Shown here: positions 31,801-56,967 of the stretch, piece after piece | Numbering within the stretch: the first letter of the stretch is position 1 | How the letters are laid out: the number at the start of each line of letters is the position of its first letter | Assembly (NCBI GenBank): GCA_030141605.1 | Contig: JAQGDQ010000108.1 | Location: 551,739-615,738, forward strand | Length of the DNA stretch: 64,000 nucleotides | Reading direction: 5' to 3' | DNA from: Tubiluchus corallicola | Lineage: Eukaryota; Animalia; Priapulida | Translations under genes and position numbers: made by a program | Notes under the pieces: generated by a model | Databases searched by the model: none | The model's input: only the letters and a program-made list of their open reading frames with translations | What the model was told of the DNA's origin: nothing

Positions 31801-31908
31801 CGGCAATTTTCGCTTAGAAAACTGCTGACGCAAACTATTGTTGTGACGTAATCCATTATACTCTGCTTATAGCTTTATTTCAGCAAACAGCTGCTACAGG
31901 CTTTGCGT

Positions 31909-31989
<81 letters not shown>

Positions 31990-32142
31990 GAGGGGGGAGA
32001 GGGAGGGAGAGAGAAAGCGAGCAAGAGCAAGAAAGCGAGAAAGAGAGAGGGAGAGACAGAGAGAGCAAGAGAGAGAGTGAGAGAGAGAGCGAAAAAGAGG
32101 GAGAGAGAGAGAGAGAAAGAGAGCGAGGGAGAGAAAAAGAGG

Positions 32143-32182
<40 letters not shown>

Positions 32183-32189
32183 AATAGTA

Positions 32190-32238
<49 letters not shown>

Positions 32239-35200
32239 GAGAGAGAGAGAGGGGAGAGAGGGAGGGAGAGAGAAAGCGAGCAAGAGCAAGAAAGCGAGAG
32301 AGAGAAAAAGAGAGACCAAGTGAGAAAGAGAGCAAGAGAAAGAGAGCGAAAAAGAGGGAGAGAGAGCGATTACCATTAATTCACTTGCCTGGTTTCCACA
32401 GCCAAGAACGCTCCAATTAGGAGAAGCAGGCCCTTGTAAGCGTAGATGACTCCTAAAAATTTGTACTGATTTGCACTTTGACATCCTTCAATTCGAGGAT
32501 TGACGATCAAGTCCTCTTCTGGGTGATACTAAACGTGTACACAAAAGCAAAGATTACGTCCAATTTCCAATAAAACTTGCCACTGTCACATCACACGTTA
32601 TCTGATGCCAATATCAGTTGCAACTGTTTTGATAAGATCAAAACAGGATCGTGAGAAACAACGCTAAAGGGCGCAGAACTTTCTGCAATAATCAAAGCTC
32701 ACTCTAAATTACGGATTTCAGGAATCAGTGATCATCAGTACAGTATGTGTGTAGAGGTCAATCGTTTAAAACATTTCATATAAAATAGACGTGTTCATGT
32801 AAAGAAAAGTTTAAAGCAGTTATCTCAGCCAGCAGATATGTTAAAATACCTTAAATTTTCTTAAGTAAAAACACTGGGAAATGCATTTAAGTATACAGGT
32901 GTACGTGAATATCATTAAGTATGGAAATGCGATATAACTACATATAAATGTCAAACCTCATTAGCTAACTCCATCACTCTGGGCACAAGAGGATCAATAA
33001 CTTGCCAGGCAATCAAAATGATGACGTCAACAAACATGAATCCTGCCATGATTCCATATAGATGACCATCTTTAATAATCTAAAACACATTTATGTAATA
33101 CGTACGTTTTAAGAGCAGTAAATATTCTTATTGTCTATATTAAATATATAGTATGCAACCTTGTCTGTAAACTGGGGCCCACGTTGCTATTAGTACGGCA
33201 CTTCAGCAGTTTGACAATCATTAGTAAAAGAAACAACAAGTAGGCTATAATTGCTTGGTCACTATGTTACGAGCGTGTATATAAAAGACCAGAACTAATG
33301 AATATTTATTAACAGTCACTGACACTACGTATATGAAAATTCAATGGCTACAACTATTTTATTACTTTGTGTGCTGAAAAACAGTATGGTGGCGAAACAG
33401 CTCTAGCTATATACAGAGTTTATATTATTTTCAAGCAAATTTATAAAGAAGTAATATTAAAACAATTACGATTCTTTTTGTTTTGTCCTTGCTAGTAAAG
33501 ATGGCGTATACTCTCCAGGTTTTGCTGAACAGGCCTCCGAAGGAAAGTGTGAAACCAATAGAAAGTAACCACGCTCGACACTAAAATAATTCAATGTGTA
33601 GGCTATAAATAATCATTTATGCTTCTATACAGTGAACAGCTTACGCAGCAATCAAATAGGTTACGTGTAACACTAAAGAAACTCAAACTACTGTTTACAC
33701 TTTACCTAAGCATGCGATTAAACAGTACTGTATCTTAGCCGATGAAGCCAATTATTGCGATAGCAATCTAAAGTCCTGAAGATCATACGCAACCTTAATT
33801 GGGCCTCAACGTCGTAGGTAAAATTTTCGGTTAGATTTTTATTCTTATTTGCTTGGAATGTTTCATATGTTGTTTTCCGTATTAGGTTTTAGTTCAAGCT
33901 TTGTTTTATTTCATAAGACTAACGAACAAATTACATGGAAAATTCGAACAAAATACGTAAAATATTTAACTGGGCCCAGTTGTTTTGCAGAATGTTTTTA
34001 AGCATGATATGTCACTAAAATAGTGAAATAATTATAATGATTATAATGGATAATAGTGATGAACATTATCGTAATAGAACATGCACACAGCTAGGTAACA
34101 CTGTGAATGTACACACTTACATACAATAATCCATGTATTCACATACATCGATCCTTAGCCATTTATTTGAGCCTTTCTAGTGCTTTATTTACGCATAAGT
34201 GTGTTTCACACTAAATTCAGGGCGTTTCAGCTCAACTTGAATCTTTGTGGCATCGTAGTATTTAGAAGACCTATACAATGCACTAAATCGTATTAAGTGA
34301 TTGTAAGAATTTACCGCACAAACTGTTCCTAGTCTACTAGTAGAAGATACGATATTGCGATCTATTCCAAAAAATATAATCGAAACGTAGCACAAGATGC
34401 AACCAATTGCGATAATGTTGTTCACTCTAGGGCTGGACAGCTTTATCACTCTGAAATAAATTAAGCCTACAAATTTACACAATGTCAAAAATAATGTTGT
34501 TCTTTGTTATCTCTTTGGCTACCTATACAGTTCATAACTTCTGTACAGTGTTATATATTGTAATTACCATTACCGGAATTTATTAATTCAATAGTTTTTC
34601 ATTTTTTCATTCAATCATTCATACATGTATTCGCTCATTCACAAACTTACATGTTTATTCATTCATCATTCATTTATACAGTCATTTATTCGACTATTCA
34701 CCCATTTACTAAATCATTCATTCCTTTATTCACTGATTCACCAATTTGGTTATTTGATTTATTCATTTACTTTTAAACACAAATATATGAAAAGACCTTA
34801 CAAGCTGCACAAAAACACCTCTAGTTAAAAAACAAAGGCTTTCTACGAAAATCATCATAAACAAAGCGAAAAAGTAATTAGATATCATGCAAGCATGATT
34901 TCTAATCTGTATAAATTACAGAAGTGTAAGTTATTTTAATTTAACCAGCGATTAGTTTACGTAGTTTCAGTATGAAAGATGTAGCGAAAATTCTCATAGT
35001 AGCGTCATAATTTGCTGATATTCTGCGAATTTGCCGATTAGATATTATTTTGCTCCTATAGTGTTTAAAAATCATTTAGTAGCTATATCCTGCGTCGCTT
35101 TTAACTTCTTAACATTATAGTAATAATTATGTTAAAACTTAGCTGAAGGAGCTGAACACAAAACCTGGCAAAGTTTCATGACGTTTGTTTGGAAAACGAG

Positions 35201-38200
35201 ATTATTAACCAACAAGCATGTAAGACATATATGAGTATTGAATAATCCTACCTTTCTGATCTGTTTTTGATATTGAATGCTATCATAACAACAGTATAGC
35301 AGACGCCACAAGTTGCCAGGGAAACCAAAGCTACAAATAACTCATAACTGACCGACCGAAGTTCGGTCGTTTCTTTCACAGCATCGCGTGGTGGTTCACT
35401 TGGGTCCCAACCTGTGAATTTAACATTGTTAAATTTTGACCAAGTAATATGTGGAATTTGAGTCTATCATATGCGAGTAAACTAGCAAAAGCAAACGCAT
35501 CATCACGTACTAATGCAAGTAAAACGATACCTTAAAAAATACTGTAAGGAAACGCGAATTGTGTTGCTATTTCCGATATTAAACATAAAAACAATTTAAA
35601 TGTAATTTTGTAAGCAGGCATAGTGTTCACAGCAGACATAGACAAAAAATAGAGTTCTGTTATCTAACTTCGTAGTTAAAAAGGAAGCAATTTTTGATAA
35701 AAACTTTCATAAAAAAATTTTCCTGTGGTCTAAGAGAAAATATCGATTCATAAGAGAAAATCTCGTTTCTGCAACTAGGAAACGAAACTAGTTATTTATT
35801 TTATTAGTCTTTTCTTTTCGTCAAAAGTTACAACTATTGTTACCTCTAAATGTAATTCGACGAGGTGTCAGCCATATGAGTTCATTATTCAAAGTGTCGT
35901 AAGCACCAACAGTTTGGAGACTTCCATCTAAAAATATATTAAATTGCAAAGCGTTATTATTTGCACCTTGAAAAGATAAAAGAAAATGCACTAATAACAT
36001 TTAACTTCGTAAATCTAAAATATTCTCTAATTGCACATAATGTACCTTATAGGTATTGTAGTTTTGTGGCAAAAATATTGGCAACTCAGCAACGGAATTA
36101 ACCCATAATTATTAAATTTTTGAAATCAAATGTGGCCAAAAAAGTAATATGAATAAATCGGAAATAAACACCAATGTCATCTATAAGCTTTGAGGTAGAT
36201 CATACTCTTTTCCATTTAATCTCTAATTCATTACATTTAAGTTTCCATTTCAATTTAGTTTTCCAGTTCAATGCATAACAGCTCATCTATTTTAGTGAAA
36301 AGGGGTTTTTAGTAATAAATTTGTCTCTTATGGCAAATATGAATGTCGTAAGGCTGGTGAAGACTTTCACAGGCTGAGACTCCTGTTCGCTTGGGTTAAA
36401 TGATAAAAAATTGTCATAAATAAGGTAAAATCCTTATGTGGATCATTGTTCAAAAATGGCATAATTAGCCAACAATATTCAGTGAAGCCACAAATAATGT
36501 TTTTACAATTGTGTTGCTATGACACATATTTAGATCCCGGATTTTTTAGACTTGTCAAAACTTACTCAGCTGCTGTTCAATCTCCAGTTTAATCCCGTAT
36601 CTATCGCCATTAGCATTAAATGCTATTGGTCCCTGGAGGAAAAACAGAACAGAATTAGGCAGTGAAGGAAATGAAGCAACGTAAGCAACTCATTACACGC
36701 AAAACGAAGTACGTGTATTATGCGATGGACACACTTTTAAGAAAGCATCAAGGATTTGAAACGCAGTTTACTCAGATTTGGTTAGCCTCGAAGTCGAAGC
36801 ATTACGCAATGTTAAAACGTGCTAATCAAGTTTGTCCCACATCATAACCATGTCCAAATTACAAAAGCTATGCAACTTTTGCAACTTCTCAGCTTCATTA
36901 TTTCTCAATCATATAACTTAAATAACGCGCTGACAGCTGCGAGTCAGCTGCACCATTCTATTATTCTTACAAATATATTGCACAATGTTAAGGTACATAG
37001 TCTATTTATTAGGTTTATTATTATTGGTCGCAGGTGTTTGCATGTCTACAGTGTCAAAACACAGCAATGAATCAGACTGTAACTTCAACGGGATGTCTTT
37101 ATTCATTTAACGCTTTCATGTGCCGCTGCAGATTCTGATCAATTAAACTGCAATCAATAAGTTTTATTAAGCTAAGCATTTAATTAAAAACCGGTAATTA
37201 GTATGTTGCCAACCGAATTCGAGTAAAACAATTGCAGTCACCTTTGGGGCCATTTGTATCTAATTTTCATGTGATTTTAACAGAGGTTCGCGACCCCTCA
37301 CCTCACCCAAAACTCGTAAAGTTTCAAAATTGATTAAAATGTCATGAAAATTCAACTGAGATTAATGTCGTAAATGCATCAAAGTCTTAGTTTTCCACAG
37401 GACTTTGGTACTGCTTGAGAAATGTCCACAAGAATAAAAAAAAGAACAATGCCAATAGCAAAATGTGGTCGTGCACCATGTCACGGTTGTCAAAATTACA
37501 CATTTGCAAGAGACCTGAAAAGACACTTAAGTTACATCCAATTCGAGGCATGGTACAGAACCTAATTGATTTTATATAAAATATCGATTACAGACAATTA
37601 TTCATATGTACCTGTATGTGCAAATCATAATAATGGCATAATCAATAATATCCATAATAGCAGTACACGCACTTTTAAATGTAATTTTAGTAGTTATTGT
37701 ATAAGGGTGAAAATATCGAACCGTGGCACCAAATATGTCCACTGCTAGCATGAACTTAAGGATCAACTGATAAATGTAATCATCTTCGTATGAAAAATCC
37801 TGAATCAACTTTGTACTGTTGTCCGATTCTAGGTAGGTGATGGTATCATTGAGGGCCACTGCCATGGACCAAACTGTATCATAAGCAAATGGACCCGTGA
37901 TTAAAATATCTTCTGTCTCTGTTGTCGAACGGTTCTTGAAAAGATCATAAATTTGATGGGACGTCTGAAAACAAGAAAAGATAACTTTGTGCACACAAAT
38001 TATAAACCATGGAAACAATGCTTAAACACTTTATAATTATAAAATTCTTAGGGTAGAATAGAATGGAACTGAGAGAAAAGAGACAGAACAGAATACCATA
38101 AAATAGAAACAATTATAGTAATATATGTGTAGAAATATATAAAAAACATAATTGCTTCCATATTTAGTTATACGGCAAATAAAAAAAATTCGCTAATATT

Positions 38201-41200
38201 TTAGGAATACTTTAACCATGCAACGTACTGTTGCAAGCCATACAACCAGGCTCCAGCAGAACATTATAATGATCAACAGAATGAAAATAGTATGCTTCTG
38301 CATATCATACTCTTGCTTTACTCCATGCATGAGCCTTGCCAAGAGAACAACAGATGATTGACAAATACCTGTCCAGAGATAGTAGGGTCTTGATCATCAC
38401 TGAAATTGTCCCAGGTAAACCAGATGACACTCTCAAAGGCAACTTTGAGCTGACGGTTATTACACTTGCTAAATGTCTGATCATGCTGCCAAGTATCAAA
38501 TGGTCCTGATACTAACCATAGGTGCTTTTCATCATAGAGGCTTTGATGAAAGATCTGGAAAGGAAGCCAAACTTTCTATAACAAACAGATGTGCTTTAAT
38601 TAGTTTAAAAACTATTGTAATATGGGCCACATATGGTTACTAAAAATTACTATGCTGTTCCGCATGTATATGAGCATTACTGTAACAGTTACAATATGGA
38701 TGCATGCTAAATGTCCTGTATATAAAAAACTACTATACTCATGGTCTACGGTAAACCTTGACCTGTTAACCTGAACGTAAAATACACCTACTCCACAAAG
38801 AAACATCTTCCATTGTGCATCTCCAAAAAGTCCAACAGCAATTCTAGTTTCAAGTTCCTGTAGATAAAATTGTTGCATATTAAATTGTAAGCTTCTAAAC
38901 GTAATTCCACAATTAAAAACATGTCAAACCAATTCTGTCACTGTCGGGAGAAGTTTCAAGGCAAAAAGGTAATTATGCAAAATTCATTGAAGGATGTTAG
39001 TCGCACATAGCGTGTGTCAAAAATATAATTTTTAATTAATTTTTTCTTCTTAGTCTCATAACTTTTGCATAGTATCTGTCTATAATCTACATACTGCATA
39101 TACCATACATCTTCGCATGTAAGCATATTTTCCTAAACGTTTTGTTGAGACTCCAGGTTAGTGTTTTTTATAAACTATCAGGATTAAACTGTTTTAAGAA
39201 AACCAAATAATTTTCATTAACATCTTATACATAACACCTGGTTACCCGTCAACTTGCACAATTTCAATTCAAATTCGATTTCCAAATTCGAGTTCGAGTG
39301 CAAGGCCAACCCCACAGCCACTAGTCCACTGATTATAACAAAGTTCCAAAGTTCATGCCGGAGATTCCTGGTTCAAATCCAGGCCGTGTTCCAACTTTTC
39401 ACATTGCCTGACTTTCGAGTTTGGTATCAAAATTTAATTAACTGTGGATTTCTAACATCATCGCTAACAATACTTTAATCATGACGTACATTCGATGCTG
39501 CTGAACGAGCATCATGTGGCAGAATAATTAAATTACATGTAGATGGTTTGAGTGCTGAGTTGCTAACTAGACACTCTTTATTTGAACTTACTTTAATATT
39601 CCCCAGCGCATGCTCGGTTGTGTACTTAAACGGCTCTAATGTGATTATCTCTATTCCTAGAGGAGGAAACGATTCCGTCATGTTGTCTGCTGTCTAAAAC
39701 AAAAAAAAGCAAGACTTTAAAAAAACGTAAATTATTTGATGACCTGATAACTTGAATTTATTACCGTAAAGACATCCATACACATACTGTATTTACATTA
39801 GTAAAATATGAATAAAAATGAAAACCGTAAGCAATAAAAATTTTACAAAAATGGTGTGAATCTGATCAATAAACATGTGCCATCATTCAAGTAAAATACT
39901 TAAAGTTACAGTTAGCCATGAAGTCACCAGACTTATAAAACTGAGTTTACTTAAATAAATAAAACGTTCCTATAATGATAACAAAAAATATTGTACATTA
40001 AACCTCATTAAGCATTATAAAAATATGATAGTAATAACTAAGTAATTCAATTCAATTCAAATTTTTATTCCGGTAACTAAGACCATATAAAATACAAATA
40101 CAGTACTACAGTGAAATAAAAAATACAAGATTAAATCTAAATACAGGGTTGGTAAATTAAAAGCTAAATAAATTTTAGAAACAAATGATGTAATATTTCA
40201 TTCCACTTTACAAAAAAACTGTAATTTATTGATAATCGGTTGTTTTCGAGCGAATGTGGATACAGGGTTACGAAAGAAACCGGAAAAGCGTAAAAACTAA
40301 TTTAATCAATAGTAGCACTGAAAAAATTGTTGCTTTGTTTCAGAATGCAGAAGAAAAACCTGTTCTTCCTCAGCTATTTCAGAAGCAATATTGTAAAAAA
40401 GTACATCCTACAAACTTACTAATTTAAACACTTCTTCTTTGTACTGCAAAATAGACACACGAGTCCATTGATACAAGAAACACAAATCTCGAATGGCTGG
40501 TAACACTGCTGTTGTTGATGGCTGGATTCTAAACAGGCTTGGATATGACTTCCTGTCAGAAAAAGCTGGGTTTCCCGAAAGAGACGACACCTGATGGAAT
40601 GCAGAATACACGAATATTGTTAACATAGCGGCAATTTTTGCACAGAAGTAAAAATAATAGTTGTTTTTAATATACTGCCGACAAATTGAGGATAAGGATA
40701 AATTCCACTCTATATTATCTCAGACAGGTCAGACGGGTGACCTGTTACGATTAGGTCTGCGGATAACTAATTCATGACTTGGAAAAATTTAAAATATGGA
40801 CATAAAACGTATTTAAAGCATTATATCATGGCGATTATGGCGGTCTTCTTTTTGGCTAATTTCAAAAGCAATAAACTTGATTTCAGACATCAATGACTAT
40901 TATCACCGCTCATCAGGCTTTTCCCGGAAGACAGGAACTCTACAATGGTGAATGAAAAATGGCTTAGCTTTTGCCCGTGAAATAGCGTTGTTCATGAAAC
41001 CACTAGTCACTGATGAGTTAAATGCAATAACACGACATAAGTCGAGAACACAGTACTGTTAACCAATATGGCGAAACATTTTAATCAAAACGCAGACAAA
41101 AGCAAACATTTCTGCAAGGTCGTAATGGCTTTGCGGCCTTTGCCTTTTGTTTGGCTAGCTTTGATATTTTATAACACAGGCCTGAGATGCAATCAAATGG

Positions 41201-44200
41201 TACCTCAGTTAGGTTAAGCAGAAAGACAGACAGACAAGTGAACAATAACTGTAATAGAGAACTTTACTCGAATACCTGTACTGACAGGCATTTAACTAAG
41301 GAAAATATCGCAGTTTAATGAAAGCATTAGTTGAATAGCCACATATAATCACAAAAAATAAACAAAAGTCGCGGTTAGTGCAAAAACGCCTAATTCTAAC
41401 AAACAATCCTCAGTTAATTTTAAGGGCAGTTTACCCTTCTCAGCTCTAAAAATGGGAAGTAGCTTCTCTTCTCTGGACAGCATGAGACCCTAAGCTGAGG
41501 ATCTAATAGGCTCTGAGAAACAGAGCCGCTGTGTTACATGTATACGCAAACTTTCGTTCAGTTAGCATTTTAAAAAAGTCTCATAAGGTTACAGCATGGT
41601 CAAACAGTCGCATTATACGTCATCGTCATTAGTTGGATGACGTATATACTGAGTTGTAAACAAGTTACAACTCCAGCATCCAAGCTTGGAGAAATGTGAA
41701 ACAGATTGAGATAGATTGGCTAATAATTACGACGTCGTGTGAAAAGTGCTTTACACGATTCCAGGGAAGTTCGCTGTGGAAAGAAATGCGCACAAACGCT
41801 AACAGATTTTCGGACTAATGTTTGAATCACTCATCAAAAACAGGCGACTGATGGTCTTACTGAATTACTAAACAAGCCTCAACAATGTCCAAAAGCGCCA
41901 GATAAACATAACTGCTCCTGTTAATTACAACCATTAGTTTAAGCTTATTGTAACTGTTGTGGAGGATAGAACTTCATTATCAAACCAGAAATATATGCCT
42001 CAATTCTGCAGACTGGTCTTAATATAACAGTAATAATAACCCCCAAGATGATGCTGAGCTGCGTCAGACTAGAATTCAAGGCCATTTTCAATCAAAGGAA
42101 ATTTCTGTTAGCAAATTAGGTTAGACAACAAGAGCGCGTTATATACTCCAGACAATTCGATTCTGATAGCTTTCTGTTTCGCCATTTAATGGTTACATGT
42201 AAGAAGGCGAAATATCGCGCGTAATATAACTCATTACAACATTGTAGTGAGTCTTGTTTCACACGTGCATAAAAATCTTGCCAACGAATTATGATTGAAA
42301 ACAAACAGTGCATTACGCTTGACATAACGACAATTTCAGTCACTATAAATCAACCTTAATTACCAACGTAAACTTTAATGTCATGAAACGCGTAAGGAGA
42401 AAATTATTGATTATTGTAACTGCAAACAATAATCTAGTATCAAGCGAATATCTTACACGATTGTAAAAAAATTACATTGCAGAACGTCACTATGACCATT
42501 ACGCAAATTATAAGGCGCCTTTTCTCTAACTTAAAAGGAAACCTTAGGCTTAGCGTAATCAAGCACAGCAGAAGGGACAAGTGGGTCACTTAGCCCTAGC
42601 CTACGATTTGAAACGCACAAACATCCCTACTTGTGACAAATAGGTTGATAGAAATGTAGTTGTGATTTAGGACCTCTACTGTCTTATACATTTTGCAACA
42701 AATTGTTTTAAATAAATCGTTTTACTCTGTTCTATTATATACTATTATTTATAAATACATTCATTTACCCTATATTTACATGAATACATACGCCGCCCGT
42801 ACATAAACCATATGTATTTCACACTGCTTGCAAAACATAGTTAATGAGGAATATAAAATGGGCCTACTTTCATTTCCCAGGCGCCCGTGCCCAAGGCTTA
42901 ATGCCAGCTTTAGGAATATTTATTACCGTTTTAAATATCGAAATTACCGAGTTACATGCAACTTTTTCAGAACTATTAAAGATATTATTAACTGACAATT
43001 AAAATATTTCACACTCATTGTGATACAGCGACGAAATTAATTCAACAAACGCCCAATCAACAATTAACATTTGTGCAAAAAGTTCATTATAACAAGGAAG
43101 CTGCTAATTATGACATGATTACCTGTAACAAGTTGAACTCTGCAGCAGCAGGGGCGGTGGCTTTGTTCACATCGGAGCAGCCACTCTCCCACACCGCAAC
43201 TTTGGTGGGTGGATCTTGCAACAATTTAAAGAGAATTTTTGACCCTTTGCCCTGATCACACTGTAACAAACATACAGAAATTGTAATCTCGGCCCGCTGG
43301 GTATCAGATTATTTGCTTGGCCCTAATGCTTTGCTTGTTCACATGGTACGCCTATTCAGCGTGCTTCAAAGTAGCTTTTTCATCACCCAAAAAAATTCAA
43401 AAATGACAAACTTGTTACTGAGTCCGAGAGAATATTCTGAACGCTGGAGCAGTTTTAATAAACAAAGGTGTGGTAAAGTCAGATTTTAATGACAACGACC
43501 AGGTCAACCTAAAACGCTGAACAAAAAAGGTGAGTGGCTTCAACAACGGTCGACCGGGCATCTGGCGGGGCGTAGCACGTCGCCCGGAGGCAAAAGACCT
43601 TCTGGCGCCCTACCTTTTGAATGTTTTGATCATTTGTTTCTTGGGTGAGGCAACAAATTGTGGGCGTTTTTGCGTCTCTGAGCTCACTTTCTTTTTTTTT
43701 GATATGATGGGACAAAGGAATCGCCCTGATTGGCGGTATTTCACCAGATTAACTCTCTTCTGTGCATGAGTTGCGCATAACATGACAGCCCTTAAACATT
43801 CAGCTCCAACATTAAAACATGGAAAGACTATGAAAGATACAGAACACTACAAATTTTCATAATAATGTACAATCGGCATTACAGAAACCCCACTCTGTCG
43901 CGGGTTCAATTAGTAAGCAATTGATATAACTACAATTATAGTGGCCTTTATCACAACATAAATACGCTAAATGTTCTTAATGAGTCAATTAGAGTCAGCC
44001 CTAACATGCTTGTAGTTTAATATTATGAGGCTTTATAATAATAGGTAAAAAAGCATAGTACAGCTTTAATTGTCATTTACAGTTGTGTTCGTTATATGTA
44101 ATAACCATGTTGGCATAATAAATTACATTTCGATATAAGCTGCAGAGCTTTAGGAGCAGACTCACACACACACACACACACGCACGCACACACACACACA

Positions 44201-44202
44201 CA

Positions 44203-44299
<97 letters not shown>

Positions 44300-45110
44300 C
44301 CCCTCTCTCACCCTCTCTCACAACATTTATTTAACGAATATTACAAATGCGCCTTACTCACCTGTGTGTCTCCATAAATCACACGCACTTCATGGCGTGT
44401 AAGGAGACTCAAATGATTATTCATGTCACTGAGGGCTACCTGCACAGCTGGTACCATGCCAGCCGCCAAGAGACCTTTTCCTGAGATAGATAGCAAGCCA
44501 GCAATGTAGATGGGTACTTTAGTTTTATCGCACGGTTCCAATGTACTATTCTCTATAGGCGTGATGAACATGCATTCTTCACCAAGGCACATTCTCATTA
44601 GCAGGAAAACTGGAAAACAACAGTGTTGCGATCTGAATAAAATAAAATTGCTCGCTGATATGGCCACGGGAAGCCGGAAGACAAATTAGAAAAGTGTTTT
44701 TCGTTAACAGAGTTTAATAATTTTGAAAAAAGAAAAAGGTGTATAAAGAAATGTACATAACTGTTAATAATGATTCGACAGTTATCGGAATTTAAAAATA
44801 TCATCCTTACAGAGACTTTACAAAGTCTAGTGGCAAACCTTCTGGACAAGGTCGACTAGCTTAAGTAAACGCAAACATTTATCAGCTTTCACTTTTAATG
44901 TGCACACTTGTTTAGTGAACTTTTATTTCAGTCTAAAAAGACGAATCTGAATACAAACAATTAAATGCCAGCAGAATACAAATAAAAATGGATACAATCT
45001 TACGTAACATCATTAAAAACAGTATTTCATGCGCATTTATTATAGAACTAAAATATTTGCTTACCAAATGCGTGAAGTCCTAAACACACGGATGTTAATT
45101 TGGTCTCCAT
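22829..45110 (-). CDS. GABA-B receptor-like class C GPCR (gene B), 18 exons, about 824 aa: signal peptide, Venus flytrap, 7TM, coiled-coil tail
   Basis: Exons: 45110-45065, 44609-44362, 43260-43123, 40590-40420, 39693-39592, 38857-38792, 38554-38369, 37964-37722, 36632-36566, 35927-35844, 35411-35252, 34450-34315, 33580-33470, 33079-32957, 32528-32389, 29947-29755, 23768-23604, 22924-22829. All phases are compatible and the frame is open. Motifs: AYDTVW, PPRD, IKLSSPRVNNII, GFTLSFGGLFSKTWRVY, WQVIDPL, YAYKGLLLLIGAFLAVETR, LNDSKYIG.AIYNV, VFLPK. Linkage of the last two exons across the SDR cluster is less certain. Confidence 0.9.
24060..24251 (+). mobile_element. Probable LINE (L2/CR1-like) 3' end with AATAAA and a (GCCTT/AGCTT)n tail
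   Basis: ...CCCGGAATAAAA...GCCTTGCCTTGCCTTAGCTTAGCTT. Similar tailed ends occur at about 40045-40110 (-, (TTGAA)n) and about 55320-55362 (+, (ATCTA)n). Confidence 0.45.
24802..25133 (-). pseudogene. SDR copy 3: 5'-truncated DHRS4/DHRS2-like fragment (YxxxK to intact C-terminus)
   Basis: PGVGLYSVTK...RRLGQPEEVAG...GGGFPTRL*. Near-identical to copy 2, including several hundred bp of 3' flank (about 24252-25133 versus 25357-26183); no N-terminal Rossmann fold. Confidence 0.85.
25872..26676 (-). pseudogene. SDR copy 2: DHRS4/DHRS2-like with a 19-bp frameshifting deletion near the 3' end
   Basis: ATG at 26676; TGSTYGIG, SNAG and YSVTK present. Relative to copy 3 it lacks GGGTTGTCCCAAACGTCTC (CTC microhomology) at about 25970, giving a frameshift, a stop at 25918 and loss of the ...PTRL terminus. 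Confidence 0.8.
27176..27991 (-). CDS. SDR copy 1: intact classical short-chain dehydrogenase/reductase, DHRS4/DHRS2-like, intronless CDS, 271 aa
   Basis: MATFSSKKPHKGKVAVVTGSTYGIG (TGxxxGxG), basic SRS cofactor loop, catalytic YSVTK, IRVNAVAPG, DASYITGETI, C-terminal TRL (PTS1-like, as in DHRS4 SRL and DHRS2 TRL). Confidence 0.92.
   Translation of the reverse strand: MATFSSKKPHKGKVAVVTGSTYGIGYSIARRLAQDGASVMICSRSKENVEKAVEMLKAEGLIVNGTVCDVLKESDWKSLIDQTIETFGGVDIFVSNTGGGRTLEKLGGIVGPMMDVTEEGWDAMMKFNLKAGFFIAKLAAASMESRGGGNIIFNSSIWGYKACAGCELVPGSGLYSVTKTAILGLVQAMAPQCAEKGIRVNAVAPGLIETPLVSYLKNMPEATAAYLNRCPMRRFGQPEEVSGMVSFLCSNDASYITGETICIHGGFPTRL
30612..31070 (+). mobile_element. Dispersed repeat, copy 2
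   Basis: Homologous to 16718-17135; a shorter diverged piece lies on the minus strand at about 49430-49520. Confidence 0.8.
31272..32368. mobile_element. GC/CpG-rich insertion (possible non-autonomous Helitron-like element) followed by a compound (GA)n tract
   Basis: Abrupt rise in GC/CpG after TATATATAAG; contains ATATATCAAACGAAAGGTCTCG. The (GA)n tract 31910-32368 has an internal duplicated block (GGGAGAGAGAAAGCGAGCAAGAGCAAGAAAGCGAGA x2). Class is inferred. Confidence 0.5.
44163..44320. repeat. (CA)n/(CT)n compound microsatellite
   Basis: Direct reading. Confidence 0.95.
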
Positions 45111-46495: not shown

Positions 46496-49400
46496 TCACG
46501 AATGTGACAGAAAGTTAGATTCAAAGTTGCGTTCGAAGTTCGTCTGGAGACCTGAAATATAGAAAACCTTAGGGTTCAAATTTAGCAACCAAAATTTGCG
46601 ATATAATGTATCAGAGTTATATATGCCTACGCTGATGCAAGAAACAAAACCAACAAGACCAGCAGCTTCTCTGGAACTCATTACCATAACTGACAACAGG
46701 GTTTTAATGTCTACAGATAATATTATGTACCATGTTGTGTCGAAATCCCAGTCGCCAACGATAAAATTAGATAAATGAATATTGAAACCTAACTACCAAA
46801 GTAACAAAATGGTAGTAGTATAGTAATAATAAAACAATAATACTAAGTGTACTTCTCTTTTTATTATAATAAGGATTATAAACATGTCTAAACAGAAGCA
46901 ATTAAGGCTTTGGTCTGACAAGAACACGTGAATACAACGTAATATATGACAATGTAAGTTCTAAGGCAACTCATAACGACAAGCGTAACACAGATGACGG
47001 TATCAAAAAATCTACTTATTCTACAGGGTGTTCCGCAAGAAACAAGGCAGTAGAAATATGTTGACATGGATATATTGGAAATGTACAAAAATCAAGTTAT
47101 AAGGTAAGAAAATTTGAATTATGCAAATACACTATTTTTAGCTATATTTTTACGTCATTATTACGATATCATAACGCAGAAGTGATTTTGGGCAAAACAA
47201 CAAGTGTTGCTCAAAGCATCCAACCGAATGAACCGCGTGTTTTTCATGATACTAGCATGCAACATTGCTCCTGTATGTGTGTGCAAGTTAGTGTTGAACA
47301 CTATCTCTTACTATACAACTTAATGCACAATTACGTTTCATTGTAATTTGAACAACATATTTCTACGTACTGTTTTTTCCTAAACACTCTGTATAAAGAA
47401 ATAACGAAACGTTATTTTTTATGAAAAATGCATTAAAGCAAGCACGATATCTTTTAACAAACTACATATTTTAAAGGTTGACACGCCTATATTGATTGGT
47501 CAACGTTGTGGAAAAAGTAATCTTGCTAATGACCTTTCCTAGGGACATAAATGCGATATTAAGGCATATTTTTTCAATTATACAAAATTATACACATTTT
47601 CTCAGATTTTTTTCAGTAAGACAGCAAACAAGCAGATAGTGTTTAGCTGAGTTATTTGGGTCTTGTATGAACTACTGGAAAATAATGTCTTGCGTGATCC
47701 ATTGACCCAACTTCCGCCTCTAATTAGACTGGTTATTTTTGTTCGTCTGAGACCTTCTTATAATACTTGTGAGTTTGATGCACAACAAATAAATATTATT
47801 CATCTCCACGGTAAGTGTTGAAAACTGCAAAGAATAACAATCTATCCTGCAGGTGCGCAAACAACCTGCGATATTACGTGTTAAGTTTTCGCGCGAAACC
47901 TATGAAACACACAACATAGGATCCATTATAAACATTGATGTCTTCTTTTCTTCATTTGTTATGAACTTTATATAGGTCAATATGAGACCAAATAATTACC
48001 AGTGACTTATAATAATTTATTATATGGAAACCTCAGATAACTATTTCATCAACAATATGAGTTTTGTACTACATACTGTATAAATTAGCGTGGCATGTCA
48101 CGACCGGTTAAAAACGAAAGCGGGGATTTTTAAGGGACGCGTCCCAGTTATACACCACCAAAACCTCGCTACAAAGATAAATATCGAGTAATGGATTTTT
48201 ACAGTGAGTCCAGCTTCGAGAAATCACCATTTTTGAGATGAATCCAAAGCTTTTATTGAATACAATCCAAACAGTATACGTAAACTGGTTAATAAAGAAT
48301 AATTTAAATACCCACAAAAGTAGTTATTGAAAGGAGTAAATGAAAATGCACTACACAAAAAATTTTGCTTGCCATCAGTAACTGGCCATTTATGATATCC
48401 TACATTCTATATTCACTCACCTATAGTAACACCTACTATATGCACGGTCAAAAGTCATGCCTGTAATTCGGTTGGCAACATCAATTTTAAAACAATTTAC
48501 ATAACTTTTGAATTTTTAATTGATGTCATTCAATTTACTTAATGATAATCATTTCATGCACCTACCGTTACTCCTTGTCCACTGACGTTACTCATCGAGT
48601 CAAAAATTAGCTGCCCCATAATTTTATTTCGATACGAAAAGTTTTCTAAACGTCTAGTTGGATTCATTGTTTGAAGCTGCGCATTGGTTTTGTTCAGCGC
48701 CATAGCTAGTGCTAATATGGAATCGTATGCAAAAGGTCCAGTGACACTCGTGTCAGAGCCACGATCGAGTAAATGCAAGTCGCGGTATATTTCACCAATT
48801 TTCTGTAAGAAAATTAAACCGTGCTAAACCAAAAGAGAACAATGGTACTTGTGCTCAATTTGAGAGTAGCTTGTAATACTGTCGAGCATCAAGATGGGAC
48901 GATGCCTACTGTGAGGAACCCAATGTATTATCTAACAGTATTGTTTAAGTTTAAAGCGCGCTATGTAGGATAAATGAAGAGGTAGCACTTCTATCGTTTC
49001 CAGGACCGTGAAAAAAGTTTGTGAGCACTACCGCACCATGTAATAATGTCAGTTCCGCAATTTCAGAATAATTAAATATTTCAGACAAAGAAACGCACTT
49101 TTTGAGACAGCTATACCGAGGAGAATTTAAACATTCCATTTCAAGCTCCTAGAGGTCAGCACAATGATGGTACAACTGATTTTCCCTATTTATTCTTTGC
49201 CTAGGTTTCACTTTAAAGAACAAGAAAAGGGGTACCCGATGTAGGTTTCAGAAAAATCGCCTTAACAGTTATATTGCTTTACAGCATTTTTATGCATACA
49301 TCTTACTGACGTTAAAAGGAATTTTTGTTTGCTTTCATTTTAAATCTCCCATAATACTGTTCCGAAGTCGTCATTACATGACGTCACCTACGCAAACGTA

Positions 49401-51277
49401 AATCAGGCGAAGAAAAGGTAATGTTAAATTATGTAAAAAAAACTTTCCGTGCAAATCTATATTACTTAGCATTTGGCTAGCCTGCTGGAAAGACTTATCT
49501 AACTAAAAACAATAATTTAGATTGATCGTGCCAATTGGCAAAATGGCCCACTTTCCAGGATGCGCCACCCACTAACCAAAAACATATTTTAAATCTTATT
49601 GACAAGATGCAGTAACTCAAGGTTTTACTTAGTTAGTAACATGTGTGCTTTGCATACTCTAGTATTTTTTCAAACTTCACACAATGTTATCCAAACTTGT
49701 TTCAAACTACCTACTATTAAAATAGTAGCCCCTAACAGTCATTGCGGGAATTTAAATGTACAAGTTTTATACAGTGTTACTACCGACCCAAGCCCAGCAT
49801 GTAAAAAGGCAGTATATAAGTGGTATGAAATTTCAAGATGAATTTTTAGGCTTTATGTAAGTGAAGGGTTTAACATTTGTTAAAGGTCAGCTATTCATTC
49901 AGCTATACAGTCATTAGGCCTATTGCATTTCCTCTTTTAGTTTTGTTGAAAAAGCTGCAAGTCTTTCCTCCTAAGTTGTTTGCAGCATTGAGCTGCACAG
50001 TGAGATCGCCAAAATGAATGAGTATTTTCAGTGTAATTAGGTTACACTGATCTCTACTCTAAACGTTTTATTTTTTTACCTTTCCAGAAATTGTTTTGAC
50101 ATCATAATCCTTAGCAGTGACTTTGCTATCTGTGACATGAATGATGCTGTCAGCCACAATAGTTATCAAGTTTTGATCCATTTTATTCTTGCCATTAATC
50201 TCGTATTTGTATTGGTCCAACCAATTGCGTGAGGTTCCACTTGTCATCCATACATAACGCTGTCCATACATTCCTGCTTCGTGCATCTAAGAAAATGAAC
50301 GCTGTCACCGACTTTTTTGTGTTTAGTTTAAGCGAAAATATTTACTAATTTCTATTGTTACTTTTTGCAATTTTATTACTGCTTTTGTATACTTCGCAAT
50401 TTATAAACACAAAAAATTGATTAATAGATTATTCAATAATGCGAAAACTTATGACTACTTCTACAAACTTCTCACCGCTGATAGTAGATGGAGCCACGAG
50501 CCGTCAACAATTAGGCAAAGAAAAATCCGTACATCCAACCCCTAGAACGATGTTCAAGTTATTTTATTGTCAAATTAATTTTAACGATATAACGCTAATG
50601 AAAAGAAAAGGTTGTTCTACTAATGATACCCAAACATTTGCGTTAGAATCAGAAGTTACCGTCAATTTGATATAAGACATTAAGACTGACCGACACTACT
50701 GATGTGTTATTGCTAGCTAAGTATTTATATAAAAGAAAACCCGATAGATTCATTCACGTCTTAATAGGGTAATTACGTACGTAAAAAGCCATATAGACAT
50801 AGCATTAAAACTAGTTCTTAAGAAATGACGACGATAAAAAATACCCCTTGACAACAGAATCAGGAAGCGGCATGAAAGGCTAGCATGTTAATAAATGGGA
50901 TGTTTCAAAAGTCACTCTTTTTTCTACAAATTTGCTAAAAATCATTGGCAATTACAACGAAAACCTAAACTGATAATTTGGTCGCCGACTCTCAGAAAAT
51001 ACATTCCCAACTTGGGTTCAACAGTCTACTGTTCACATTCCGCAAATAATAATTTATCTTAATAAGAAATAAATATCGTAACATGAAATAGATTGTTATT
51101 ATTAACAAAAGAAAACCGAGGTAAATAAATTGTGCGCACATTTAGCCATGTCTTCTTTTAACCGTAATAAAAAATGTAGTTATTATATTTTTATTGACTT
51201 GGTATTGACTAACCAGGTATTGACTTGGTTAATAGAAAACGTGATCCCTTCAAATAAAGCTTTTCTTCGTCTGTTTC

Positions 51278-51332
<55 letters not shown>

Positions 51333-54300
51333 TCAAAAAATAAAAAAGTTTAATCATTCCCACCGTGCCGAAACACGAAGCAAATATACACATTAAATTA
51401 CTGTACACTCTACAACACGGCTTAGTTTTGAACGTTGAGGTTTAAAATTTATTTAGCATAACCACAATTTGTTACCCGTCCTGTTTCCTATGCAAAATTC
51501 AAGCCTATCTGTATCGAAAAAGATCGACCAAAATTGATCACGTATCGACCTTTTAGTCGTTTTTCGACCAGTCGTCTATGCTATTTATGTCTGTTGTCAA
51601 CTGCACAACCTTTCGGCTAAAAAAATTTTCAAAAAGAGCGAAACGTTAAAGAGTTACTAGAACAAAAAGTGCTTTTGGTCCTGCCGACGAAGGACGCTGA
51701 CAATGTTTTACCAATTTTTGCTTATACAAAAATGCTCAGAAAATGGCACTTCATTAAGGTTAAAGTATTTTAAACTTTTGGTAGTATAAGATACCGTCAT
51801 TGACCTTCAACTTCAGTAGTATTTCTGTTAAGTTGTTTCGAAGATGTTCCTTAGTCACCACAGTTATGTTAGTTTCATATAGCATGTTAGCTAAGAGTTG
51901 ACTTGCCTGAAATAAATATAGAAGAAAATCATGGTTCCATTGAACAGCAGTAATCACAATTGTAATTGTTAAGAATCCAAAAACGATCGCTTTCACGGTG
52001 GCATCGAGTACGAATAGGGGGAAGAAGAGGAAAATTTTACCGGTAAGGTTGATGACGACAATGACGACGTTAACAAGAAGTTGTGTAATAGTGAGCACAG
52101 CAATAATGTTCTAACTACTGAAAATAATCTGACAGTTATTTGTGATGACTGTAGCGCTAACGACGATGACGACTAGATAATGATATCAGTAACAAATAGC
52201 AGTATTAAGTTGTCAGCAAATGACCGCCTAACTAATATAACACAGTTGTGAATAACAATAAATGTGTCAAACTGGACGTGTCCCCGCGCTTAATTGTCAC
52301 TGTCTGGACAGAAACAAATGTCATTTTCACATCATATGATCTGTGAGCTTAATTACTCTCGACATTCGAAACTCGGGTATATATTATTAAACATTCTGTT
52401 AAAGCCCGTGACAATATAATACCTACGGAATTGTAAGTTTGCGTGTTGTCATGCATGACGGCGACCCTCTGCCAATTGTACGCTTTGGTTAACAGGATCA
52501 TCGATGTGATTCTTGCCTTCAAGCCAACAGAACAGCGAAATAAATATGGAAACTCGAATCTGTTTGACAGGTCTTGGCTCTGGGCTAATGACGATATCTG
52601 CAATTCATAAAAAGGGGTTCAATATTAAGAGAAGATGTACAACTGAGCGTGGATTGGACACGCCTACCGATTCAGTGTCTTATCTTAGGCATATTTCACA
52701 GTGAAGATGCAAGGAAAATAACTCATGGAATTGCAGTTAGAAAATCACAAATATTTAGAACATTTTCGATTTTTTCTCGAGATCGAATGCAGAAAGAAAG
52801 TTCATTTCACAGTGAAAACGCGCTGGTTTTTTCCGCGCGTCCAGTTAGTTGCAGCTATTTGCGAGTTTTATACTGTATAACATGTCTAAGTAATACTTGC
52901 CGTATTTCTTACACACAAATGTAACGTCAATGTAATGTCAGGCCTGTTTATTTTTTAGTAAAGTTCTACTAACCACTCCAAAATCTGAAAAGGTACATAC
53001 ATAAAATAAATACATGCGTGCGTTATTTTTCTTTTTCACAAATACAAATATCGATGTTGCATGAATAAAAACATAAAATCGTCATTCTGTTATGAGAGAC
53101 ATTGGGGTAAAATGGGCTAATGTCGCACAAAAATGGCTTTTTTAGGTTTCTATCTATATTTTTTACAATTTTCTTTGAATAATGCCTGATAAACTAAAGC
53201 TATGCTGCTAAGGAGTCGGGAAGTACAGAAAAAGCGAAAATGTAAAATGCTGTGATAATTTTAAAAATGTTTTCCTACGCCATGTCAAAAAATGGGGTAA
53301 TGTCGGACAGTTGGTAGGATAGCGTTGGCCACGTAATTAACAACTTTGTGGTTATGGCATTTAAATTATTTTAAATGGTTTGTAACATCGAGATTGATCA
53401 GTGACGACATGAGAGATGCTTTAGAATAAAGTAGGCAAGTGCTAATGCCCTCACAGACATTTTCTCCGTGTTGTTATGGCAGATTGCATTTAATCATAGC
53501 TCCACTGCAACAACCTTCCTCTCTTATTCTTTAAGTCTGTTATATGTGCAGCACTTTTGCCAACCGTTTCTATAAGGTTTTCTCCCCATGTTTCTAGAAC
53601 TATTAAACCATATTCTTTTTACATATTGGCTCAAATGGCCAAAAAATAGTGTCATTAGGCCAAAAAAAACACAAACAATTAATTCTGGCGAAAAGTCGCT
53701 CACAAAGATTCAACTGTCCGACATTCGCTTAGGCCTTCGGGTAAAGTCGGACACTGCTTCAGTGAGTTGTACAATAAACAAACAAATATGTTACTTTGTA
53801 AAGTGTGGTATGAAAGTATATGGGAAGAAATAGCTTACAAAATAAACCATTTCTGAAGAGGCTGCTGTAACTAATTAAGGCGTTAGGTCTATTTATCAGC
53901 ATATTTAAAAAAGTTAATACAATTGATGATAAACGTACTCACTGAGTGAGCTTGTAAGTTCACGATCACATGGCTGCTAAAAGATGAAGTGCTAGGCCAT
54001 GGTGAAAATGCCAGTCTAAAGACAAGATGTAGCAGTATTAACAATGAAATGAAACATCAACGTCCAGGTAATTTAATAGGTTTTAGGAAAACGTAAAGCT
54101 CATTGTCCCACATTAGCCCATTAACCCTAAAATCTTATTATTTTATGCTGAAATGCGTTAATGGTTGTTCGTTAAGTAAGAAAGAGGTAATAGGGTAGTT
54201 AAATTTAAGACTAAATCCCGCGAAGACTCACGAAAATGGAACATGTAGTATTTCTACCATGCTGCAAAATTCCTCACGAGGAGGACGCATAGCCTTAATC

Positions 54301-56967
54301 TGACGGCAAAACTCCTCACTAGGAACTGCACAAGGAATTTTGCAGCGCGTCCTTACTGTGAAATGAGCCATAGAAATAATGTGTTCCATTTTCGTGAGGA
54401 AAGCCGCAAGGAATTTCTCCTCAAGGCATTTTGCTGCGCGTCCTCACTGTGAAACGGGCCTTAAGCGACGTCTACCAGGCATTCGGAATGCATTGGTAGC
54501 TACTGCATAAAAATCACTTTATATTGTTTCCAATGAACTCGCTTATTAGCCCTGCGTTTTTGCGTCATTTTTCTGCAGTTATTCTTATGGGATTATTTAT
54601 ACGCCGCTGAATAGGCAATAACTCATAATGCATTCCGGATGTCTGGTAAACGCCGCTTTAGACGATTATCCTTAAAAATTAGCTAGGGGTGCAGGGAGTA
54701 ATCCCCTGTGTGTGAGTGTATTAGTGACCAAAGTTGAACAACATGAGGCCTGGTTAGTAAATGGATGGGGTACTGCTGGGAAATGCTCTATAAGGAGTGG
54801 AGAAAGAATGAAAGATGTAGTGTGGTAATGAACAGGCGACTGTTACCATTACTTTAAATTACGTTAAATTATAACGTTGTAATTTTGTAATATTGTTGTA
54901 AATTTTATTGGATGTCATTATGGACTAAATTTGACAGTATCGTCTTTAACAAAACACCGGTTGCATAAAATAATAGTATCATGAAGCTATGTAGATTATC
55001 ATATGACTGTAGTGACTGTATCATATGAGTGTAAATTTATCATTGCCACATTTTTCACACCTTTTTAGGAAAGCCTGTCACAGTATTAGAAAACGATAAC
55101 TAAAACTTGTAAACAACAAAGTCTAGTAGCTATTGTCAACTCTGTACGAACTGTACAATCTCGTTGTTTTAAAATGTTGGACAGTAGACTGTTTGTGAAC
55201 AATAATCGTCGAACGTCATAGCTACGAGTATTTATTAACTGTGTGTATTGTAAATAGTAGTATTTTAGTGCAGCTTTTATTTTAGTATTTTATTGCAGCG
55301 TGATGTAATGTTTTTACGTGTTTATGTGACCTTTTAAGCCGAAATAAAATAATCTAATCTAAATTCGGTTAAGACGCAATTATTGACTAATACTAATGTT
55401 ATTTTAAAAGCGATAACAAGGCGTAGGGACTTTATTGTAAAACGTACGGGTATGTTGTAAATCTACATTGTAAATCATGTAGATATATTGCGCTAAAAAA
55501 CAAACACATCTGCGCAAACAGAGTAAACTCAAAACTTACGGCTGAACCTTCATCGTTGCTGAAACCGCTTGCTACCGGTTTGGTACTACTCACCATAATT
55601 AAATTGAAATACTGTGTAGCACCTATAGCTAGGACAACACTTGAGCAACCTCCTTCCCAGATAGCAATTTTAGTAGCTGATGTATCCACGAGCAATTGAA
55701 ATAGAACTTTCATACCTCTCCCAACTTCGCACTAAAACAAAACCTGAAGCTACAGTTTTTGTTTTACTTTCATGAATGCTTCCTTTCATTATAGCTTTAA
55801 ATAAATCGTACCAAATATTACTCTGATCAGTAAACTACAAAATTGAAAATGTTCCTTTTGGCCTCATTGTGTTAAAAGAAACACAAAGTTTTAAATTGGT
55901 TTTTCCTTTGTTTTGTAGATCTGACAATTATATAAAAGATCGCTGCTACATTTTTAACATTGTTTGTTCGCTAGATGACGCAGCAATACAGAAATATGTT
56001 TTAACGAACAGTACGCTGCTGCGGTTGCATACAGACGTATATCCACAATATAAATCAATATTATTCAACTCATAATGTAAGCTAGCAGTCTCTTTAGTTT
56101 TTAGTAATGCGGGCAAAGCTTTTAGTATTCATTATACAACAAAAAGGCGGTCATGCAGGCGAATGGACCATTTATGTATCAGTATAAGAGAAGACGAAAA
56201 GTGGGCAATAACGGACGGACAATATCTGTCTTGCGTGTGCCCGTGTATAAGGATTATTGTGCCAGGAAAAAATTTTCAACTTTTAAAACCAATTATCTAA
56301 AATTCTAGAATCTACGTATACAAATACTACATAGCAAAGTACAATTACAACTTTAAGCTTCAAATATACATACAGCAGAGTTTCCGAAAACGATTTCCAA
56401 TTCATAGTCCCTCAGAAGCTGGTCGTTCATGTTGATGTCTCGTAAAGCTAAAAGAGCTCCAAAAAGAAGTCCAGAAGACACCCATAGTTCTGGCCTATTG
56501 GCTTGCTTTTCTATTGGCAGCACGGCGCCTATATATATCTTCATCTTTTTTGTTGCATTTCTCATCATGCTATTGTGGTCACAGGCATTGGTTTCTTTGA
56601 AGTAAAACTCCATTGTAGGATTATCCATGCTATGAAGACAACATGTGTATAACTCATAGTAGCGCGAATGTTGAAAGCATCGCACGTGGCCTGGCTTTGC
56701 AATGCTTTTTAAATCGAGTACACAAGCCGTTTTCATCATCACTGAAAATGAAACATGTAAAATGATAGTGATCATTAAACAGTAAACATAACGAATTTTT
56801 CTACTTTAACGAATGGTTTAAATTTATAATACATGTACAGTAAAAGCATGTGTAGTCAATTGCGTGTGTACTTTTCATAATTTTTATTACATGTTAAATA
56901 ATATAATCTAGAAAAACCTACCAGTAAATGCTAAAAAGAAACAATTTATCAACAAGTAGCACGACAT
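46496..56967 (-). CDS. GABA-B-like Venus-flytrap-only paralogue (gene A): signal peptide + VFT, no 7TM found
   Basis: Exons 56967-56922 (MSCYLLINCFFLAFT), 56741-56374, 55731-55594, 52597-52427, 51906-51805, 50541-50476, 50286-50080, 48802-48566. All are open, GT-AG, and in the same phases as gene B exons 1-8; five have identical lengths (46, 138, 171, 102, 66 nt). Motifs: IYIGAVLP, GGCSSV, LSNR..FPYLFR, GMYG.RYVW, GPFAYDSI.ALA.ALN. Terminal exons 48460-48421 and 46631-46496 are tentative. Confidence 0.8.
51282..51329. repeat. (CT)n microsatellite
   Basis: Direct reading. Confidence 0.95.
53104..54127. mobile_element. About 1-kb non-autonomous DNA transposon with imperfect TIRs (pogo/Tc-like termini)
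   Basis: Left GGGGTAAAATGGGCTAATGTCGCACAA versus reverse complement of right GGGTTAATGGGCTAATGTGGGACAA; internal related motifs GGGGTAATGTCGGACA and GGGTAAAGTCGGACA; no transposase ORF. Confidence 0.65.
54227..54460. mobile_element. Palindromic MITE-like element with nested inverted and direct repeats
   Basis: Inverted pairs CTCACGAAAATGGAACA / TGTTCCATTTTCGTGAG and GCTGCAAAATTCCT / AGGAATTTTGCAGC; direct repeat CAAGG.ATTTTGC.GCGCGTCCT.ACTGTGAAA x2. Confidence 0.7.
54462..54659. mobile_element. About 200-bp MITE with about 33-bp TIRs
   Basis: TAAGCGACGTCTACCAGGCATTCGGAATGCATT versus reverse complement of the right end AAAGCGGCGTTTACCAGACATCCGGAATGCATT. Confidence 0.8.
54727..54783 (+). pseudogene. 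5S rRNA-derived fragment (pseudogene or SINE3 head)
   Basis: ACCAAAGTTGAACAACATGAGGCCTGGTTAGTAAATGGATGGGGTACTGCTGGGAA matches the 5S internal control region (A box...GGCCTGGTTAGTACTTGGATGGG...GCCTGGGAA). Confidence 0.7.

Follow-up and report, generated by a model that had tools for sequence, protein, structure and literature searches.

Organization of the locus

The 64,000-nucleotide (nt) window of the priapulid Tubiluchus corallicola that was analyzed in this study (contig JAQGDQ010000108.1, positions 551,739 to 615,738) carries on its minus strand a gene related to GABA-B receptors, hereafter gene B, and upstream of it a second region, A, that repeats its first eight exons. All coordinates given below are those of the window. 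Gene B includes at least 17 exons, from 45110 down to 23604, with 793 open codons given an apparent GC donor at the end of exon 15 (32389-32388, minus strand), the frame into exon 16 then being open. Its exons are distributed as follows:

45110-45065, 44609-44362, 43260-43123 and 40590-40420, minus strand: exons 1-4 of cassette B, with the ATG at 45110
39693-39592, 38857-38792, 38554-38369 and 37964-37722, minus strand: exons 5-8 of cassette B (exons 1-8, 37722..45110, encode 400 amino acids, aa)
36632-36566 and 35927-35844, minus strand: likely shared exons 9 and 10, encoding the last strands of the flytrap
35411-35252, 34450-34315 and 33580-33470, minus strand: likely shared exons 11-13, part of the linker and seven-helix block
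33079-32957, 32528-32389 (GC donor) and 29947-29755, minus strand: likely shared exons 14-16, with a Pfam 7tm_3 match for exon 16 (E 6e-9)
23604..23768, minus strand: likely exon 17, start of the cytoplasmic tail

Exons 11-16 (29755..35411, minus strand) encode a short linker and the seven-helix domain, without any cysteine-rich domain. A flytrap joined to 7tm_3 by a short linker is also the architecture of GABA-B subunits (GABBR2-like; PDB 4MQE, 6WIV, 9JR0), and B is 29-35% identical to annotated GABA-B R2 and R2-like proteins over most of its length. From its predicted domains, it can be assigned to the GABA-B-like class C G protein-coupled receptors (GPCRs). It keeps its own ATG and a likely signal peptide (the signal peptides of both A and B were called from hydropathy only). 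The 6 kb intron 16 of this gene harbors three intronless short-chain dehydrogenase copies on the same strand (28192-27179, 26715-25921 and 25134-24805, minus; Pfam adh_short_C2 E 3e-56, adh_short E 1e-46): the first is apparently intact, the second carries a frameshift close to its end and the third is a 3′ fragment derived from a local 880-nt duplication (91% identity).

Region A comprises eight exons between 56967 and 48566 (minus strand), which together give 445 open codons with zero stops. Its seven internal introns are all GT-AG, and a GT donor, the strongest of the locus, directly follows exon 8. The exons are:

56922..56967, minus strand: exon 1, ATG and first part of the likely signal peptide; 46 nt coding, as in B exon 1
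56374..56741, minus strand: exon 2, 368 nt, exceeding B exon 2 by about 40 aa and bearing a cysteine-containing N-terminal extension
55594..55731, minus strand: exon 3, 138 nt, with both cysteines of the first flytrap disulfide
52427..52597, minus strand: exon 4, 171 nt, Pfam ANF_receptor E 0.0014
51805..51906, minus strand: exon 5, 102 nt
50476..50541, minus strand: exon 6, 66 nt, the top-scoring candidate (26 versus 3 for the next acceptor)
50080..50286, minus strand: exon 7, 207 nt
48566..48802, minus strand: exon 8, 237 nt, ending in phase 0 inside a conserved G-V-T / G-x-V-x-F motif

The end phases (1,0,0,0,0,0,0,0) are common to exons 1-8 of A and B. Five of these exons (1, 3, 4, 5 and 6; 46, 138, 171, 102 and 66 nt) have equal lengths in both, and the three others (2, 7 and 8) measure 368/248, 207/186 and 237/243 nt. 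This exon-by-exon comparison bears out the first-pass annotation, which had described A as a mirror of B exons 1-8 with the same phases and five equal lengths. Its statements that no exon of A has a stop, a frameshift or a broken splice site, and that A exon 8 ends in phase 0 at a strong donor and B exon 9 (36632) starts in phase 0, were likewise found to hold. As a chance control, stretches of intron DNA as long as exon 2 were never stop-free (0 of 6,071 positions), and those as long as exon 8 were so at 32 of 6,200 positions. Pfam ANF_receptor matches were obtained for exons 4 and 8 of both A and B, and all 16 PDB matches of A exon 8 are GABA-B chains. The extension of A exon 2 (56741-56560, minus strand), which adds about 40 aa over B and four cysteines N-terminally to the flytrap, has no Pfam match. 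According to hydropathy, A has a likely signal peptide and no transmembrane segment; it would acquire a 7tm_3 domain only through an inferred splice to exons of B.

Divergence, selection and ligand sites

The proteins of A and B were initially noted as strongly diverged, and indeed only 118 of 388 aligned residues are identical (30%). Fourfold sites are identical at 10 of 47 positions (0.26 expected from composition), the proportion of silent differences (pS) is 0.78, i.e. saturated, and the nonsynonymous divergence (dN) is approximately 0.87. Identity reaches 58% at second codon positions versus 29% at third positions, and the introns of A and B share no extended DNA similarity. Saturated silent sites, combined with frames and splice sites that are intact throughout, support long-term selection on A, which strengthens the earlier argument that such long-maintained frames favor function over decay. 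In a simulation of 400 runs, A remained intact in at most 5% of cases after 2% of neutral divergence. Taken with the saturated silent sites, this result argues, as far as can be judged from the sequence, that A is functional now or was so until very recently. It can also be observed that both cysteines of the second flytrap disulfide (named as such in bioRxiv 10.1101/621060) are apparently lost in A exons 6-7 (50541-50080, minus strand), the second position being read off the pairwise alignment, and that B keeps both. Such a paired loss seems to fit selection better than decay.

Of the homologs retrieved, none exceeds 26% identity over the full length of A, against 30% for B. In the phylogenetic tree, which took in no GABA-B1 row, A and B are sisters (support 100/97) and fall outside the canonical R2 clade, among divergent R2-like sequences from deuterostome invertebrates; both placements carry a long-branch warning.

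At the positions aligned, under an assumed numbering offset, to Ser153, His170 and Glu349 of GABA-B1, A has Q, S and T and B has G, Q and T. These three residues have roles in agonist contact (PMC6429233), and a Nematostella preprint argues that His170 is dispensable (bioRxiv 10.1101/621060). The canonical contacts of the GABA-binding subunit thus appear to be absent from both flytraps, so their ligands are probably not GABA, and probably differ between A and B.

HMMER with B exon 16 retrieved, among the best 150 of 751 matches, an 82-aa fragment (P0001) at 81% identity, the others not exceeding 56%; no relative with two flytraps on one seven-helix domain was seen among the 18 identified in these best 150 of 751 matches. 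Word-index ortholog searches restricted to longer proteins, with A exon 8 (49 candidates) and B exon 16 (56 candidates), and a search with the A/B exon 8 alignment among proteins of near length (three candidates), returned no scored match and are weak negatives. The Atlas search returned ANF_receptor clusters only. One homolog, P0082 from Pomacea canaliculata (isoforms X5 and X6), is annotated as GABA-B R2-like but is only 378-379 aa long, starts near the first helix and has no flytrap; its longer sister isoforms might show alternative ectodomains.

The end of region A and the gap before gene B

The first-pass annotation had presented A as an intact flytrap-only gene. However, on the solved ectodomain chain 4MQE_A, which counts 420 residues, the end of A exon 8 maps to residue 357-358, so that A falls about 55 residues and four predicted strands short of a full flytrap; in B, these are supplied by exons 9-10. 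In the AlphaFold model of the homolog P0076, used as a stand-in for the spliced A and hybrid proteins, the point equivalent to the end of A exon 8 is residue 394. Four strands follow it before the linker (396-399, 409-415, 418-426 and 431-434; predicted local distance difference test, pLDDT, 86-89), all within the 428 columns over which the model aligns to 4MQE_A. These trailing strands probably form one crossing of the hinge and a portion of the second lobe. Furthermore, A finishes on the family residues G, V and T, conserved in 22, 21 and 19 of 22 homologs. The conserved residues that come next (G, V, F, R and G, in 20-21 of 22 homologs) are encoded in B exon 9 only. The own exons of A therefore do not encode a complete flytrap.

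These data bear directly on the first model of the annotation, a secreted flytrap of about 450-500 aa acting as decoy, carrier or co-receptor, which loses ground given the roughly 55 residues of the solved ectodomain that are missing from A. A separate gene, or mainly a short secreted form of about 450-460 aa serving as decoy or partner of B, could end by read-through or via one possible exon in the gap:

46496..46543, minus strand: possible 15-codon terminal exon of a short 460-aa form of A, with a polyA-like hexamer at 46455

The acceptor at 46543 ties for the best score of the gap (9.7; real acceptors 4.1-14.9) and the hexamer lies 41 nt beyond the stop (46496), which, with the likely signal peptide and the lack of any transmembrane segment, would suit a secreted form. 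Truncated, helix-less ectodomain forms such as GABA-B1e have also been described in human (PMC2987798); however, these arise by splicing from a single gene and carry its one flytrap, whereas A is a diverged duplicate. Such a protein would miss four predicted flytrap strands and would end in a tail for which no family homology was found in 46543-46496. Moreover, because A retains the terminal G, V and T, it would have kept, for no reason, the first half of a conserved hairpin, which is not expected of a long-lived truncated protein. We therefore regard this explanation as improbable, although a minor short form of A could coexist with the cassette use of A discussed below.

The gap between the end of A exon 8 (48566) and the ATG of B (45110) measures 3,455 nt, and there is no N in the window. 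No homolog of exons 9-16 was found in this gap: profile hidden Markov models (HMMs) of exons 9-10 and of the seven-helix domain, built from B and 24 homologs, gave nothing better than E 3.4, and they recovered all eight B exons 9-16 (E 4e-4 or better) as positive control. With 34 long homologs, tblastn against the gap gave a best E of 0.16. The reported absence of transmembrane exons from these 3.4 kb was thus confirmed by both approaches. Two other candidates were rejected: hidden A exons 9-10, for which splice-site scans peak at 11 and 15 versus 10 and 10 in a control intron, and a 98-codon open frame (46792-46499) without Pfam match that is one of many frames of this size in the window. On the other side of A, the flytrap HMM revealed no further cassette in 57,000-64,000.

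Could A have possessed its own 3′ exons? Run X1, which appears to be low-cover DNA of another haplotype, differs from the window by approximately 1% in the gap, and its pieces match at 95-100% without any joint hinting at a longer allele. They cover 20 of 30 bins over the gap region; 10 remain uncovered and no single contig spans the whole gap, which leaves some room for the proposal that the assembly dropped these exons. However, the window contains no N, A and B share no extended DNA similarity able to collapse, and the X1 pieces along the gap show no joints, making an assembly loss very improbable. Another explanation would be that A is a once-complete tandem paralog whose exons 9-17 were lost very recently, with decay yet to come. 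The gap does not hold any trace of 3′ exons, A is somewhat farther than B from the family consensus, and an X1 contig (depth 2.4) carries at 48783 in exon 8 a change read as non-synonymous, all of which would suit a recent loss. Nevertheless, the loss would have to be younger than approximately 2% of neutral divergence, near the 1% by which X1 differs from the window in the gap, and in the 20 covered bins nothing leads toward a longer allele. This scenario therefore seems unlikely. Run X2, whose RNA nature is a guess, gave 12 records on 36500-56499 without splice joint and is uninformative about expression.

A complementary intron pair and proposed alternative 5′ cassettes

The second model of the first-pass annotation joined A exons 1-8 to B exon 9. 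Since this requires B exons 1-8 to be skipped, the gap was compared with B intron 8, which revealed a complementary pair:

48465..48481, minus strand: candidate selector, 17 nt, beginning 84 nt past the donor of A exon 8; exact reverse complement of 37219-37203
37203..37219, minus strand: candidate docking site in B intron 8, 570 nt ahead of the exon 9 acceptor
37531..37563, minus strand: weak candidate for a selector of B itself (-21.3 kcal/mol with the docking region; not above background)

The 17-nt pair (blastn E 1.9e-4) has a predicted energy of -26.2 kcal/mol, or -29.1 with its flanks. The 34.6 kb locus contains 34 exact inverted matches of at least 13 nt; this pair shares the first rank in length, and no other long-range match is above 15 nt. 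Only one of 3,000 Markov-simulated pairs reached 17 nt. With real segments of the window, five of 1,500 random placements did so, of which two correspond, by their coordinates, to this very pair and three to a repeat pair. When the first 200 nt of introns were matched to downstream introns (276 pairs), it was beaten only by a (GA)n run, the next match being 14 nt. Furthermore, each arm is the best partner of the other: the selector ranks first for the docking site among 291 upstream windows (-29.1 versus -22.7 for the next) and, in the reverse scan, the docking site ranks first for the selector (-30.5 versus -27.4). The sequences flanking both arms are unrelated beyond the core, and no third copy of the 17-mer with fewer than four mismatches was found in the window. 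A shared-repeat origin of the two arms was considered and found no support (among 500 random segments, 332 and 67 scored at least as high as their flanks). Within B intron 8, the local hairpin does not stand out (z 0.60), and no significant similarity was detected between the candidate selector of B and that of A.

Splicing of A onto exon 9 thus gains support from two sides: the end of A interrupts a conserved motif whose remainder is encoded by B exon 9, and the putative intronic duplex would join exactly the two introns that this splice requires. The same pair weighs on the alternatives, since it is left unexplained by a secreted form, has to be a coincidence under recent loss of 3′ exons, and ties A intron 8 to B intron 8 in a manner not expected if the assembly had dropped the exons of A.

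The possible joins were also compared. A exons 1-8 followed by B exons 9-17 are open over 838 aa, whereas A exon 8 joined to the nearest acceptor, that of B exon 2, meets a stop at residue 449. The join from A exon 8 to B exon 3 is open as well (1,140 aa) and would produce, by read-through, a single receptor carrying two flytrap-like domains in tandem. For Nematostella, a gene model that includes two flytraps has been reported (bioRxiv 10.1101/621060; 26% identity). However, the last strands would be missing from the first domain, and the initial strand and helix encoded by B exon 2 from the second, B retains its own ATG and likely signal peptide, and the duplex targets B intron 8, the best match in B intron 3 being a 13-nt AT-rich stretch at -8.9 kcal/mol. 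Such a double receptor is highly unlikely.

In the cassette reading, a promoter ahead of A would lead to a pre-mRNA including the selector (48481-48465), which would pair with the docking site (37219-37203) and loop out B exons 1-8. This pairing would shrink the 11,933-nt intron to approximately 654 effective nt (the median intron of the locus being 726 nt), and A exon 8 would then be spliced to exon 9 to give an 838-aa receptor. Transcripts started at the own promoter of B would not include the selector, so that B exon 8 would join exon 9 by default. As the selector would be present only in transcripts from the A promoter, promoter choice would set the ligand-binding domain.

Several observations speak against this interpretation. 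The splice from A exon 8 to exon 9 must bypass seven strong acceptors of B, six of which are also in phase 0. A matches only 41 of 90 highly conserved family columns, versus 51 of 90 for B, and lacks, two places before the terminal motif, a Phe kept in 22 of 22 homologs (B has Ile). Three of the five real placements with at least 17 nt hold a repeat pair, which indicates that repeats do create matches of this length. In run X1, a depth-2 contig carries another base at 48480 (position 2 of the selector), a change that would shorten the helix (-25.0 kcal/mol). A second contig of this run starts at 37205 with a depth of 32.7, which raises the possibility that the docking arm lies at one end of a repeat; however, this signal comes from a single contig, and in this unevenly covered run A exon 4, which is unique, reaches a depth of 21.7. 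The candidate selector of B is at background level (tied third of 291 windows). Finally, the docking site lies 570 nt from the acceptor, versus an effective distance of about 120 nt in mite genes.

Taken together, these results lead us to propose that A, an intact, anciently duplicated eight-exon copy of the first 400 residues of the receptor, probably serves as an alternative 5′ cassette spliced to a shared exon 9. The locus contains tandem homologous cassettes with matching exons and a start of their own, the last cassette exon is in frame with the first constant exon, and there is a single constant set. To these is added a candidate selector after the distal cassette that is complementary to a putative docking site before the constant region. 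The locus would thus likely produce two GABA-B-like receptors that share one seven-helix body but differ in their ligand clefts. We lean, with somewhat less assurance, toward a class C GPCR that would swap nearly its whole flytrap by promoter choice, an 11 kb RNA duplex looping out the rival eight-exon cassette.

The window includes other features. Four diverged copies (approximately 70%) of one dispersed repeat occur in mixed orientation (49869-49595, 30603-31038, 16711-17103 and 12004-12399), and the copy in A intron 7 has a very high depth in run X1. At 19538-19894 (plus strand), an open frame without Pfam match at E 0.01 terminates with a dibasic site and, after it, a CC-x4-C-x8-C pattern that resembles an insulin/relaxin-like A chain. 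A 580-codon open frame at 6551-8290 (plus strand), also without Pfam match, has several hydrophobic segments near its start and a long low-complexity tail.

In the UGT1A locus and in clustered protocadherins, promoter choice puts a variable N-terminal part on a constant C-terminal part, and the locus was initially compared to these systems. However, their variable unit is one exon (a single large first exon for clustered protocadherins; PMC4835542), which implies no internal acceptors to skip, whereas the unit found here has eight exons. A closer analogy is sDscam-beta of chelicerates (PMC4835542, PMC9258826), where multi-exon cassettes are combined with docking-site pairing. The 5′ cassettes of chelicerate sDscam genes comprise two or four exons, and each is driven by a promoter of its own (PMC4835542). 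In mite sDscam-beta, a selector found 43 +/- 10 nt past each cassette pairs with a docking site that precedes the constant region, as proven by compensatory mutation (PMC9258826). Both systems share: (i) tandem multi-exon 5′ cassettes with their own starts ahead of shared exons, and (ii) a selector just past the last donor of the cassette and a docking site in the intron that precedes the first constant exon (here both candidates). They differ in that sDscam-beta has many cassettes of 2-4 exons encoding Ig domains of an adhesion molecule, whereas here two eight-exon cassettes of 400-445 aa belong to a predicted class C GPCR, and in the distances, the candidate selector inferred here from sequence lying 84 nt past the donor and the docking site 570 nt from the acceptor. 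There is no sequence relation between this locus and sDscam-beta. The unc-49 locus of Caenorhabditis elegans (PMC11296113) is also one GABA-receptor locus making several subunits from a shared part and alternative blocks, but as a mirror image, with a shared N-terminus, alternative C-termini and an ion channel as product.

No description of a GPCR with a swappable flytrap cassette was found in the open-licence papers searched. The locus most likely represents a new version of a known splicing design in a receptor family where no such description was found. Class C GPCRs usually broaden their ligand range by duplication of whole genes. If our interpretation is true, one signalling body accepts either of two deeply diverged flytraps, and 5′ cassette splicing by selector and docking site extends from a chelicerate adhesion molecule to a priapulid GPCR. 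It is also a warning for annotation, since such a locus is likely to be called as a truncated gene next to a full one. Under promoter choice, we would on balance expect two 30%-identical clefts on the same last strands and one seven-helix body, with a cassette exon count twice that of sDscam-beta. Because the cassettes are split inside the flytrap fold, both sequences must pack against the same last strands, and the locus would then constitute a natural domain-swap experiment between two sequences that are only 30% identical.

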